Below are positions 3,659-9,720 of a DNA stretch of 10,805 nucleotides, piece by piece (the stretch's first letter is position 1; every line of letters starts with the position of its first letter). Position numbers and translations under genes: made by a program. Source of the DNA: a virus; UHGV virus genome UHGV-0174159; one strand, written 5' to 3'. Below the pieces are notes generated by a model that made no database searches, was not told the origin of the DNA, and was given only the letters and a program-made list of their open reading frames with translations.

Positions 3659-3922
3659 ATGGATAATTACGGCGAACTGTTCAACTTCTTTATGAAATGT
3701 GTTTCAGAAGATTTCGGTCGTACAGTGAATGATATTAAAGTTATCGGTCCTGATCATCCGATGTTTGAAACCTATGCAGTAATGGGTAATGAAGACGGTC
3801 AGTGGTATACTGTAAAGGTTGTGATTAATATGTTCACGGCAGAAGGTTATGTTAAACTGTCTTCTAAAGTTTACCATGATAACGACGAAATCGCAGAAGA
3901 ATATTTCAATAATATGAAATAA
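3659..3922 (+). CDS. hypothetical protein (87 aa)
   Basis: ORF-track ORF 3647-3922 starts at a TTG; ATG at 3659 lies 6 nt after GGAG (3649-3652). Confidence 0.6.
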   Translation: MDNYGELFNFFMKCVSEDFGRTVNDIKVIGPDHPMFETYAVMGNEDGQWYTVKVVINMFTAEGYVKLSSKVYHDNDEIAEEYFNNMK

Positions 3923-6344: not shown

Positions 6345-6829
6345 TTTTAAAAACTCGCTGGTATGATTTAGATGATGGGGATGATGGCATTTCAGTTGAT
6401 AGAGTTGACTGGAATGGCTGTTCCGAAGATATGAAAAATTTGCTGATTAGGGAGTTTAGAATGGGATATCAACCAGTTAAGCCATCTACTGCAACAGATG
6501 ATAAATTCGTGTGTATTCATAATGGTCGCGCTAAATTAACGAACACTGATTGGTTCACAGATAAGATTATGATTCTGTGGTATATTATTAGTTTTCCTGT
6601 GACATCATTTGTATTTTGCTTCTTTGGAGAAAGTCCAGTAGACAGAACGGGAGATTGGATTATTTTAACCATACTTGTTAATATTTTTACAGCAGCAATA
6701 TTATCTGGGATATGGTACACGTTCATTGAAATGCCATGGCGTTTACGTAGGCAGCAAAAGATTTTTGATGAAAAGAAATATACTCAAAATTTAAATAATT
6801 TTATCACCGAATGCAGGAAATTAAAATGA
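6341..6829 (+). CDS. membrane protein, paralog C with N-terminal extension (162 aa)
   Basis: ATGA start/stop overlap with paralog B; two hydrophobic segments in the C-terminal half; tail ends NFITECRKLK. Confidence 0.65.
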   Translation: MILKTRWYDLDDGDDGISVDRVDWNGCSEDMKNLLIREFRMGYQPVKPSTATDDKFVCIHNGRAKLTNTDWFTDKIMILWYIISFPVTSFVFCFFGESPVDRTGDWIILTILVNIFTAAILSGIWYTFIEMPWRLRRQQKIFDEKKYTQNLNNFITECRKLK

Positions 6830-7266
6830 AAACATTATCAGCTGGTATTATCTTTATGACAGAAGATAAAGATTTATTCATGGGACGGGTTACTGGTTCT
6901 CGTAAGCCTGGAATGATGGCACATCGCTGGGATATTCCAAAAGGCCGTGTAGAAAATTCTGATTTGAGCGCACTAGATGCAGCACGAAGAGAATGCTTAG
7001 AAGAGACCGGTTTTAGCAATTATAATCCAGACCTTCTAGAAGACCTAGGTGTATTTAAATATTCTAGTAATAAAGACTTACAGCTGTTTTATTATACGAT
7101 TCCAGTAGAGCATGAGATGTTTAGAAATTGCCCATGCGAGTCTTATTTTGAAAATAAAGATGGTGTTATGATTCCAGAGATGGATGCTTTTGCTCTTATT
7201 CCTCGTACTCAGTGGCAATATGTGATGGGTCCTTCACTTTACCGAATAATGAACAGCCTCTTTTAA
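6826..7266 (+). CDS. nudE: Nudix hydrolase (T4 NudE / e.1-like)
   Basis: Nudix box GRVENSDLSALDAARRECLEETGF; immediately upstream of lysozyme as in T4. ATG at 6826 (ATGA overlap, AGGA 8 nt upstream) preferred over the ORF-track ATG at 6811. Confidence 0.85.
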   Translation: MKTLSAGIIFMTEDKDLFMGRVTGSRKPGMMAHRWDIPKGRVENSDLSALDAARRECLEETGFSNYNPDLLEDLGVFKYSSNKDLQLFYYTIPVEHEMFRNCPCESYFENKDGVMIPEMDAFALIPRTQWQYVMGPSLYRIMNSLF

Positions 7267-8069
<803 letters not shown>

Positions 8070-8070
8070 T

Positions 8071-8116
8071 GTTTACTTCCTCCAAGGACTTTGATACTAT
8101 ACATTCATCAACTACT
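8071..8116 (+). promoter_or_regulatory. T4 early-type promoter cassette, copy 3, upstream of denV
   Basis: GTTTAC 8071-8076 (2 nt after the TAG stop), TACTAT 8095-8100, ATCAACTACT 8107-8116. Confidence 0.6.
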
Positions 8117-8124
8117 TGGAGGAA
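8077..8124 (+). promoter_or_regulatory. 10-bp inverted repeat able to sequester the denV SD, with the promoter -10 in its loop
   Basis: TTCCTCCAAG (8077-8086) is the exact reverse complement of CTTGGAGGAA (8115-8124), which contains the denV SD GGAGG; the 28-nt loop carries TACTAT and the predicted start region. Confidence 0.5.
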
Positions 8125-8127
8125 ATT

Positions 8128-8544
8128 ATGACTCGTATCAATTTAACACTTGTTTCTGAACTGACCGACCAACATCTTATGGCTGAGTATCGTGAATTGC
8201 CGCGTGTTTTTGGTATAGTTCGTAAACATGTGGCAAATGGTAAGCGGGTTAAAGATTTTAAAATATCTTCCGAGTTTATTTTAGGCTCTGGTCATGTTAC
8301 GTTCTTTTACGATAAGTTAGAATTTTTGCGAAAGCGTCAATCAGACATTATAACGGAATGCTTAAAACGTGGGTTTAGTATAAAAGATACTGAAGTTCCT
8401 GACATCAGCGATATTCCAGCAGAATGGAAAAATGATTATAATCCATGCAAATCAGCTATTAAATTGAGTCAACAACGACTCGATGAAAAAATTTTAATGA
8501 AGCCACACTGGTACAAGTATTACGGCAAAAATATTTACATTTAA
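8128..8544 (+). CDS. denV: endonuclease V, pyrimidine-dimer DNA glycosylase/AP lyase
   Basis: Translation [29 protein letters not shown]… closely matches T4 endonuclease V as recalled; N-terminal Thr2 and Glu23 conserved; 138 aa. ORF-track start 8116 is a TTG. Confidence 0.95.
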
Positions 8545-8553
8545 AGGAAACAT

Positions 8554-9027
8554 ATGAAAACATATCAAGAATTTATCACTGAAGCAGCTATTAATTCTCA
8601 AATTATTGCTGAATCTTTTACTGATCTTTTGAAATTTAAAAAAGGTCAAAAAATCACTGCTGTATTGGATGATGGTACAGAAGTTGAGATGGATGTACAG
8701 GGATATAATTATGCAGTAGATGGAAAACTGTATAATAAATCCCATGCTAAATTTGATTCATTTGACGACTTTGTTAATACAGTTGAAGATGAAAAAACTC
8801 GTAGATCAATTTCAACTGGTGATGCTAAGGTTCTTATGGCACACGGTCATGAACGTATTCGCGCTAAACAGAATAAAATGGGTGAAGATAATTTCGCATT
8901 AGTTGGTTATCAATCTGGTAAACAAACTTATGGCTATCAGCGTACTGCTACAATGTATAATAAAAATGGTAAAATTGCCTTTGTAAATAGTAAAGGTTCT
9001 ATTCAGTACGTTAAATCGTTCAAATAA
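8554..9027 (+). CDS. internal-protein-like capsid protein with CTS (157 aa)
   Basis: N-terminus MKTYQEFITE|AAINSQIIAE|S is almost the canonical T4 CTS MKTYQEFIAE; AAGGA 6 nt upstream. Confidence 0.75.
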   Translation: MKTYQEFITEAAINSQIIAESFTDLLKFKKGQKITAVLDDGTEVEMDVQGYNYAVDGKLYNKSHAKFDSFDDFVNTVEDEKTRRSISTGDAKVLMAHGHERIRAKQNKMGEDNFALVGYQSGKQTYGYQRTATMYNKNGKIAFVNSKGSIQYVKSFK

Positions 9028-9132
9028 GCAAATAAGAAATATGGGAACAAGCTGGACCTCATGATTCTGTGAGGGATTCCCTGATACTTTTAATTAGGTC
9101 GAGCCCTAGCGCGGTAATGGGTAAATACAGAA

Positions 9133-9720
9133 ATGGACAATTCATGCGCCATGGAATGGCCCAAACCTAGAGAGAACAAAATGAGAACATTTTTAACTGG
9201 TCCTTATCTATCCCTGATGAATGCTTTTACACACCATTCTGATGCTAGAGTAGAAGAAATTTGTAAAAACGAATATATCCCGCCATTTGAAGACTTACTT
9301 AAGCAGTATTGCACACTTCGACTAGATGGTGGACGTCAATCTGGTAAATCAACTGCAGTAACTAATTTTGCCGCTAATTGGTTGTATGACGGTGGAACAG
9401 TTATTGTTCTTTCTAATACTTCAGCTTACGCTAAAATTTCTGCAAATAACATTAAAAAGGAATTTTCACGTTATTCTAATGATGATATACGTTTTCGTTT
9501 ATTTACTGATTCTGTGCGTAGTTTTATTGGTAATAAAGGAAGCAAGTTCAGAGGTTTATCGCTTTCTCGAATTTTGTATATAATTGATGAGCCTGTCAAA
9601 TCTCCTGATATGGATAAGATTTATAGTGTCCATATTGACACTGTACACTGCTGCTGTAATATTAAATGTTGTATTGGTGGTATTACTCGTCCACAGTTTT
9701 TCGTAATCGGAATGCAATGA
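9133..9720 (+). CDS. hypothetical P-loop NTPase-like protein with Cys-rich C-terminus (195 aa; alternative start at 9181)
   Basis: Walker-A-like GGRQSGKST and Walker-B-like hydrophobic run ending IIDEP; C-terminal HCCCNIKCC cluster. Confidence 0.55.
   Translation: MDNSCAMEWPKPRENKMRTFLTGPYLSLMNAFTHHSDARVEEICKNEYIPPFEDLLKQYCTLRLDGGRQSGKSTAVTNFAANWLYDGGTVIVLSNTSAYAKISANNIKKEFSRYSNDDIRFRLFTDSVRSFIGNKGSKFRGLSLSRILYIIDEPVKSPDMDKIYSVHIDTVHCCCNIKCCIGGITRPQFFVIGMQ

Follow-up and report, generated by a model that had tools for sequence, protein, structure and literature searches.

Predicted masking of the denV ribosome-binding site in read-through RNA by an arm embedded in an early-type promoter of T4-like phages

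Introduction

Phage T4 serves as the textbook example of how genes are controlled in time, and the known promoter-in-hairpin switches all delay late proteins. Promoter-in-hairpin control has been described for e, soc, 49, I-TevI, I-TevII, I-TevIII, segB and the Aeh1 gene mobE, in each instance with a late promoter, and the mechanism has been established experimentally for e, soc, 49 and I-TevI (PMC3014915, PMC2988022). The free-standing homing endonuclease genes have endonuclease-specific promoters that are middle or late, and none that is early (PMC2988022). A second described arrangement is the promoter-early stem-loop (PeSL), the stem-loops of which have been read as terminators or attenuators and as recombination sites, with the Shine-Dalgarno (SD) sequence serving only as a landmark (Arbiol et al. 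2010, PMC2839356; Comeau et al. 2014, PMC4122927). Here we describe the spacer before denV, in which a putative early promoter carries the complement of the denV SD sequence.

Results

The denV locus and its upstream spacer

The window is the whole stretch of DNA that was analysed, 10,805 nt of the virus genome UHGV-0174159; it matches Tequatrovirus phages of the Kha5h/slur/ime09/Kelasse group at 98–99% identity. Its plus-strand genes were named from the Kha5h annotation and Pfam. All on the plus strand, nudE (6811–7266) is followed by the lysozyme gene e (7303–7791), a 93-aa internal head protein gene (7788–8069), denV (8128–8544), ipIV (8554–9027) and a vs.8-like ORF (9133–9720), the last a hypothetical protein in Kha5h, and then by vs.7, vs.6 and vs.5. 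The 138-aa denV product, a pyrimidine-dimer DNA glycosylase/endonuclease V (Pfam PF03013, E = 6.9e-14), is 78% identical to T4 DenV, and the gene is annotated as denV in Kha5h and ime09. A minus-strand ORF at 7760–8104 was taken as spurious because annotated plus-strand genes overlap it. The ATG of the 93-aa internal-protein gene overlaps the end of e (7788–7791), with neither promoter nor spacer between them, which suggests that this gene is translationally coupled to e. The start of ipIV lies 10 nt past the denV stop (8542–8556), and its conserved internal-protein leader, aaatatttacatttaaaggaaacatATG, is also found before T4 ipII. Elsewhere in the window, at about 1530–2365 and 2855–2995, a ten-tRNA gene cluster and the small stable RNA rnaC were located by correspondence with Kha5h at an offset of about 101 nt.

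The stop-to-denV gap of 60 nt contains, in order, the TAG of the 93-aa gene (8067–8069), GTTTAC, the 5' arm of a hairpin, five bases, TG and TACTAT, and the cassette starts directly after the TAG. The initial annotation had described a 10-bp inverted repeat here, and its coordinates proved exact: the 5' arm TTCCTCCAAG (8077–8086) is the perfect reverse complement of the 3' arm CTTGGAGGAA (8115–8124). The 3' arm does include the denV SD sequence, GGAGG at 8118–8122, followed by the ATG at 8128. In a repeat search of the window the inverted repeat was found to be part of a 24-nt imperfect repeat. An early-type promoter had also been placed in the loop. The extended -10 element TGaTACTAT (8092–8100; TG at 8092–8093, hexamer at 8095–8100) indeed lies in the loop, but the -35 element, GTTTAC (8071–8076), lies outside it, just 5' of the arm. 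The 5' arm, identified as an anti-SD sequence by pairing, folding and covariation, takes up positions 1–10 of the promoter spacer. Because it sits between the -35 and -10 elements, it is absent from any transcript started at that promoter, as had been proposed, the start site being a prediction from geometry (the A at 8107, 7 nt past the -10 element and also in the loop).

Two further helices are predicted for the read-through RNA. In the MFE structures the loop is closed by an inner helix, UUGAU/AUCAA (8091–8111), and analogous inner stems are found in T4 and other phages. An optional outer 8-bp helix, seen both as repeat I5 of the window and in a 301-nt fold, joins UUCAGAAA (8057–8064) to UUUCUGAA (8153–8160), the latter within the denV coding sequence, and would enclose the entire initiation region in the long RNA.

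The -35 element was assigned to a T4-type early (host sigma-70) promoter by its sequence and its conservation in about 30 phages, and the denV promoter as a whole fits the T4/PST PeSL consensus TTTACW-N17-TAYWAT (PMC4122927). A generic sigma-70 scan missed the promoter because it matches just 8 of the 12 E. coli consensus positions; the promoter was judged by the T4 early consensus and by conservation in place of the E. coli consensus. A MotA middle promoter for denV was considered and rejected, since there is no TGCTT box upstream. Rfam covariance models run over 7200–8700 gave two sub-threshold chance matches only.

Predicted structure of long and short denV RNAs

The inverted repeat by itself is no proof of function, because dinucleotide shuffles of the window yield 0.98 perfect 10-bp inverted repeats with loops of at most 40 nt and the window has one; the repeat alone is not significant, and its position and conservation are. 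When the 81-nt segment was folded, a check that the initial annotation had called for, the SD sequence lay in the 10-bp helix and the free energy was -18.5 kcal/mol (z = -2.6). In a fold of 301 nt the hairpin is still present, and the start codon is enclosed by two further outer helices. As a measure of masking we used the opening energy, which is the energy needed to unpair -16 to +4 around the ATG. For the denV ribosome-binding site this was 12.0 kcal/mol in the read-through RNA versus 2.9 kcal/mol in the promoter-initiated RNA. Shuffling of the upstream part gave 6.6 +/- 1.9 kcal/mol, and the native value was reached in 7 of 500 shuffles. Among the 21 gene starts in the window, only those of e (18.1 kcal/mol), the classic instance of such control, and denV exceeded 8.5 kcal/mol. 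The short leader RNA (8106–8165) is unusually unstructured, at -2.3 kcal/mol (z = +1.9). The earlier proposal that read-through transcripts bury the SD sequence is thus upheld as a prediction, by opening energy and the 301-nt fold, for the window and about 30 related phages. Against stable masking, the 10-bp helix is weakened by its 28-nt loop and could be opened by ribosomes, by S1 or by folding during transcription, and Durand et al. (2006), though with short RNAs, listed T4 denV among the 'resistant yet unstructured' RegB substrates.

Read-through RNA is to be expected at this locus. T4 denV gives early RNA and early protein, whereas e, ipIII and ipII, upstream of it, give early RNA and late protein (PMC9697503 supplements); transcripts therefore traverse the genes upstream of denV early. 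In the window, two late promoters matching the consensus TATAAATA precede gene e on the plus strand (7269–7276 and 7282–7289). The region before e (7250–7302) also includes the ribosome-binding site AGGAGG, which has the highest opening energy of the gene starts in the window. No match to TATAAATA was found in 7290–9100, and the two before e are the sole consensus matches in 7200–9100. Late read-through RNA that crosses denV therefore probably comes from the e promoters, and denV, with no late consensus between e and ipIV, seems to form part of a late e-ip-denV-ipIV transcript.

Comparison with described systems

As in gene e-type control, the denV SD sequence is predicted to pair with an upstream strand in the long RNA, and RNA from the proximal promoter does not have that strand. 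The initial annotation had likened the locus to T4 gene e but with an early-type promoter, and the likeness is supported by the predicted SD helix and arm placement and by the absence of a late consensus in 7290–9100. The known cases have late gp55 promoters of the TATAAATA type and delay a late protein, whereas the denV promoter is of the early sigma-70 type and has the anti-SD sequence inside its spacer; the timing would be reversed, with an early gene shielded from upstream and late read-through. The locus is PeSL-like as well. The denV cassette starts at a stop codon, continues with an early promoter that has the arm in its spacer, and ends with SD and ATG; it lies in the hyperplastic internal-protein locus beside variable genes, and similar cassettes occur in the window at 261, 3659, 3979 and 4384. 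It is unlike a PeSL in that its 3' arm is the SD sequence itself, 28 nt away, and the loop spans the -10 element and the start site; the only compact stem across the -10 element is the weak 5-bp inner stem.

The T4 ipII-denV spacer is closely similar, with GTTTACA, TCTCCTGTAG, TACTAT, CTACAGGAGA and ATG, and its opening energies are 11.2 kcal/mol in the long RNA and 3.3 kcal/mol in the short RNA. It differs from the spacer in the window at 6 of the 10 arm positions, all of them compensated. The neighboring genes differ as well, since the gene upstream of denV is ipII in T4 and the 93-aa internal-protein gene in the window, and the gene downstream is vs.8 in T4 and ipIV in the window. The denV genes of a Pseudotevenvirus and of 121Q-like jumbo phages likewise have their own promoter and an element blocking upstream input, though there the element is an intrinsic terminator and the SD sequence is open.

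Our search for literature on the denV promoter, hairpin or start site found the RegB paper alone. Figure 5 of that work, PMC1702504, may already show the 5' end of the T4 denV promoter transcript. The legend of this figure, which presents a denV primer extension, names the promoters of motB and modD.5, apparently a slip. The initial annotation did not recall such control being described for denV, and this holds only in part, because the PeSL layout is published and the stem-loop itself is reportedly not new. Valerie et al., in 1986, are said to have noted that stable stem-loops are possible before ipIII, ipII, denV and orf61.9. The regulatory reading, on the other hand, is absent from the open 2010 reviews consulted, which give neither denV nor any early-promoter case of promoter-in-hairpin control. 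We regard the denV hairpin as a new early-promoter variant of both the e-type control and the PeSL layout, its priority over older literature being uncertain.

Conservation and covariation

Loci with denV were gathered from IMG/VR and GenBank, and T4 itself was added. The genes flanking denV vary between phages and the cassette is retained. About 30 T4-like phages keep the promoter, the anti-SD arm and the SD sequence; the arm sequences differ among them, with clear covariation. Throughout the Tevenvirinae loci examined, GTTTAC or a close variant lies within a few bases of the upstream stop codon, the exception being L028, in which a pattern search did not find the -35 element. The order is -35, 16–17 nt, TGnTAnnnT, a leader of about 20 nt, GGAG and ATG. 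In nearly all of these loci the opening energy is 9–24 kcal/mol for the long RNA versus 1.5–4.8 kcal/mol for the promoter-initiated RNA, the weakest contrast being that of L018 (9.4 versus 6.2 kcal/mol).

The 5' arm occurs in two registers, in the promoter spacer (class A) or over the -10 element (class B), and in both classes it lies upstream of the predicted start site. The start was assumed to be 7 nt past the -10 element, an assumption that matters for class B and not for class A, to which the window belongs. A plain MAFFT alignment of the cassettes misplaced the GGAG cores and was replaced by ungapped alignments with a constant artificial linker, anchored at CTCC/GGAG for class A and at the -10 element and GGAG for class B; the positions that covary are not anchors.

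Class A consists of the window, T4, L003, the L005 group, L034 and L093, with L018 and L020 as weak members in which the core pairing is just 5 bp. The arm directly follows the -35 element and pairs with the SD sequence and the 3–9 nt upstream of it. Beside those of the window and T4, class A arms are TCTCCGTTTG in L005, TCTCCTGTG in L034 and TTCTCCTGTAGATG in L093. Across the class 79% of cells are paired, each of five stem positions shows three Watson-Crick pair types, and the covariation score is 0.412, versus at most 0.14 for slid registers; none of 500 shuffles reached it. In class B (L006, L013, L015, L017/21/24, L027, L030-33, L088/L100 and L028) the arm consists of the -10 hexamer and about 7 nt more; its partner is the SD sequence together with the spacer as far as the AUG. 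Paired cells make up 83.6%, and the score is 0.389, versus at most 0.196 for slid registers and again reached in 0 of 500 shuffles; the variable -10 positions covary with the bases just before the ATG. T4 and L006 are identical in sequence past the SD, GGAGAACACTAAA, yet their 5' arms are unlike, being placed in the spacer in one phage and after the -10 element in the other, which points to selection for masking and not for a particular sequence. Wobble pairs on the sense strand number 19 G-U versus 4 A-C, an asymmetry that indicates a helix formed by the mRNA. We also considered that a ribosome terminating on the upstream gene might melt the hairpin (translational coupling). The arm begins 8–10 nt past the stop codon in class A and about 30 nt past it in class B, where a terminating ribosome would reach only just or not at all, and coupling is therefore unlikely as a conserved function.

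The arrangement recurs in Aeromonas phage 25 (L114, 320–400), in which DenV shows 38% protein identity and denV follows the primase gene in another neighborhood. There a 10-bp arm, TTCAAATTGC, lies right after GTTTAC and has a perfect pairing partner in GCAATTTGAA, immediately 5' of the ATG, and denV is without a canonical GGAG. In the 121Q-like jumbo phages L023, L025, L026 and L035 the long/short contrast is small or absent, at up to 5.5 kcal/mol. These phages and the Pseudotevenvirus L115 have a GC-rich hairpin with a U-tract before denV and an open SD sequence (2.6–7.1 kcal/mol); the terminator hairpin overlaps a sigma-70 promoter in the jumbo phages and precedes the promoter in L115. With masking in some lineages and a terminator plus promoter in the rest, denV is thus, as judged from these sequences, predicted to be insulated from upstream transcription in every lineage. 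L003 (1430–1500) and T4 (L001) share, letter for letter, a 30-nt inner palindrome, GAATTGTGATAGTATATTCACAATTACTTG, which lies in the denV cassette of the former and ahead of ipIII in the latter; this would fit a shuffling of promoter-hairpin modules inside the internal-protein locus.

Other early cassettes

T4 (NC_000866, 1–80000; L112 and L113) was scanned for early promoters at most 45 nt from a gene start, which gave 23 cassettes. Seven of these, before 1, e.8, denV, regB, nrdC.8, modB and motB.2, mask the ribosome-binding site only in read-through RNA, at 11–19 kcal/mol in the long RNA versus 3–6 kcal/mol in RNA from their own promoter. In each of the seven, the native promoter masks its own ribosome-binding site more than any of 22 swapped promoters does. 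The six besides denV (gene starts at 75374, 70623, 62740, 53885, 13130 and 8161 for 1, e.8, regB, nrdC.8, modB and motB.2, respectively) give 11.8–19 kcal/mol and have the anti-SD arm inside or adjoining the promoter. The other 16 cassettes are open, many with self-contained hairpins across the -10 element. These comparisons suggest that the denV cassette is one of a subset of early cassettes that carry their own translational insulation. Promoter-embedded anti-SD arms might even be a general design of T-even early/PeSL cassettes and not a peculiarity of denV, a proposal we put forward only tentatively; it fits the two registers at denV, the occurrence in Aeromonas phage 25 with unrelated sequence, and the seven of 23 T4 cassettes.

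The regB helix, of about 15 bp, joins UUUUCCUCUUGACUG in the promoter spacer to CAGUUAAGAGGAGAA at the SD sequence and is identical in T4 (62740) and Kha5h (L083, 11334); RegB is known to cleave its own mRNA in the SD sequence within this helix. In the window, the gene starts at 261, 3979 and 4384 have self-contained PeSL-like hairpins that straddle the -10 element (e.g., ACATAGGGT...ACCCTAT) and open ribosome-binding sites (2.5–3.2 kcal/mol). The e.8-like cassette at 3659 is intermediate, at 8.6 versus 4.6 kcal/mol.

Discussion

The denV cassette is probably a translational insulator run by its own early promoter. According to this model, the early promoter carries the complement of the denV SD sequence in the first 10 nt of its spacer. 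RNA coming from upstream, that is, early read-through and later the abundant late RNA from the e late promoters via the internal-protein genes, would have both arms and would fold into the 10-bp GC-rich helix with the inner and outer helices, so that the SD sequence would be hidden and denV poorly translated. RNA started at about A8107 would be without the 5' arm, its leader would be open, and denV would be translated. With the long RNA masked and the short RNA open, DenV output would thus be set by the gene's own early promoter and uncoupled from the heavy late transcription of its neighbors. The benefit might be that DenV is made early only and not in proportion to abundant late message, although any reason for limiting DenV to early synthesis is speculative. 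Masking by the upstream arm is, as a model, well supported, with strong comparative and thermodynamic backing. We infer the activity and exact start of the promoter in this phage, the read-through RNA, the effect on translation and the early-only benefit.

The main alternative to an insulator is a PeSL-type terminator or attenuator, in which the stem-loop lowers upstream transcription or stabilises upstream mRNA 3' ends and the overlap with the SD sequence is incidental to a crowded 60-nt spacer. The layout is that of PeSLs, with a stop codon, an early promoter, a stem-loop in the spacer or over the -10 element, SD and ATG, and one PeSL stem-loop cut downstream lacZ expression like a strong terminator (PMC2839356, PMC4122927). 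Moreover, the Pseudotevenvirus and the 121Q-like jumbo phages have a true terminator and promoter before denV, and transcription-level insulation of denV therefore does occur. The hairpin in the window, however, does not look like an intrinsic terminator: its 28-nt loop includes the -10 element, the stem runs into AAAUUAUGAC with no U-tract, and a terminator scan finds none here. Nor would a terminator require that the 3' arm be the SD sequence, or SD-to-AUG, in both registers and all lineages, opposite a CTCC-like anti-SD 5' arm. T4 cassettes with self-contained hairpins that spare the SD sequence exist, and overlap with the SD sequence is therefore not forced by lack of space. On balance we consider a terminator or attenuator an unlikely account of this hairpin.

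A role in RNA decay or processing seems less probable still. The hairpin might shield the GGAG of the SD sequence from RegB, which cuts GGAG in early SD sequences and is inhibited by secondary structure, or might make a processing site in the long RNA. The GGAG of T4 denV is RegB-resistant in vivo, and regB, modB and motB.2, which are RegB-related targets, have similar promoter-embedded arms in T4. This resistance was, however, traced to the sequence 3' of GGAG and not to structure, an A-rich graft making the site cleavable (PMC1702504). Against the RegB consensus GGAGRAYARAA, GGAGGAAATTA in the window fits at positions 5, 6, 8 and 11 and does not fit at 7, 9 and 10. The RNA of early expression could not be shielded, because the 5' arm is absent from it, and 10 bp is short for RNase III. 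Hard to favor too, and a shade more doubtful, is action of the inverted repeat on DNA: cassettes might be shuffled by recombination there (PeSL mini-circles), or the promoter DNA might be modulated. PeSLs have been shown to recombine and form mini-circles, the neighbors of denV differ between phages while its cassette is kept, and the inner palindrome of the L003 denV cassette is shared with the T4 ipIII upstream region. Recombination, though, needs identity between cassettes and not intramolecular complementarity to an SD sequence; the arms differ by lineage while pairing is preserved, and the asymmetry between G-U and A-C pairs points to sense-strand RNA. Complementarity arising by chance and without function is what the expectation of about one such repeat per window would allow, yet this is very improbable: the shuffle controls oppose it, as do the position at the SD sequence, the covariation in two independent registers and the reappearance of the pairing in a distant genus.

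In sum, the translational insulator remains the reading we prefer. If it is correct, the early-promoter version would be a known hairpin device used in reverse, and it would let an early repair enzyme be encoded among heavily transcribed lysozyme and internal head protein genes without late over-production. Masking of denV offers a testable cause for some of the mismatches between T4 RNA and protein timing in omics data, and the cassette would be a compact natural insulator part for phage engineering. PeSL stem-loops would gain a translational role, which would account for the context-independent expression of shuffled cassettes. Were the design general among early cassettes, each would be translationally blind to upstream RNA and governed in its output by its own promoter alone, making its genes portable and allowing early genes to sit in late operons.
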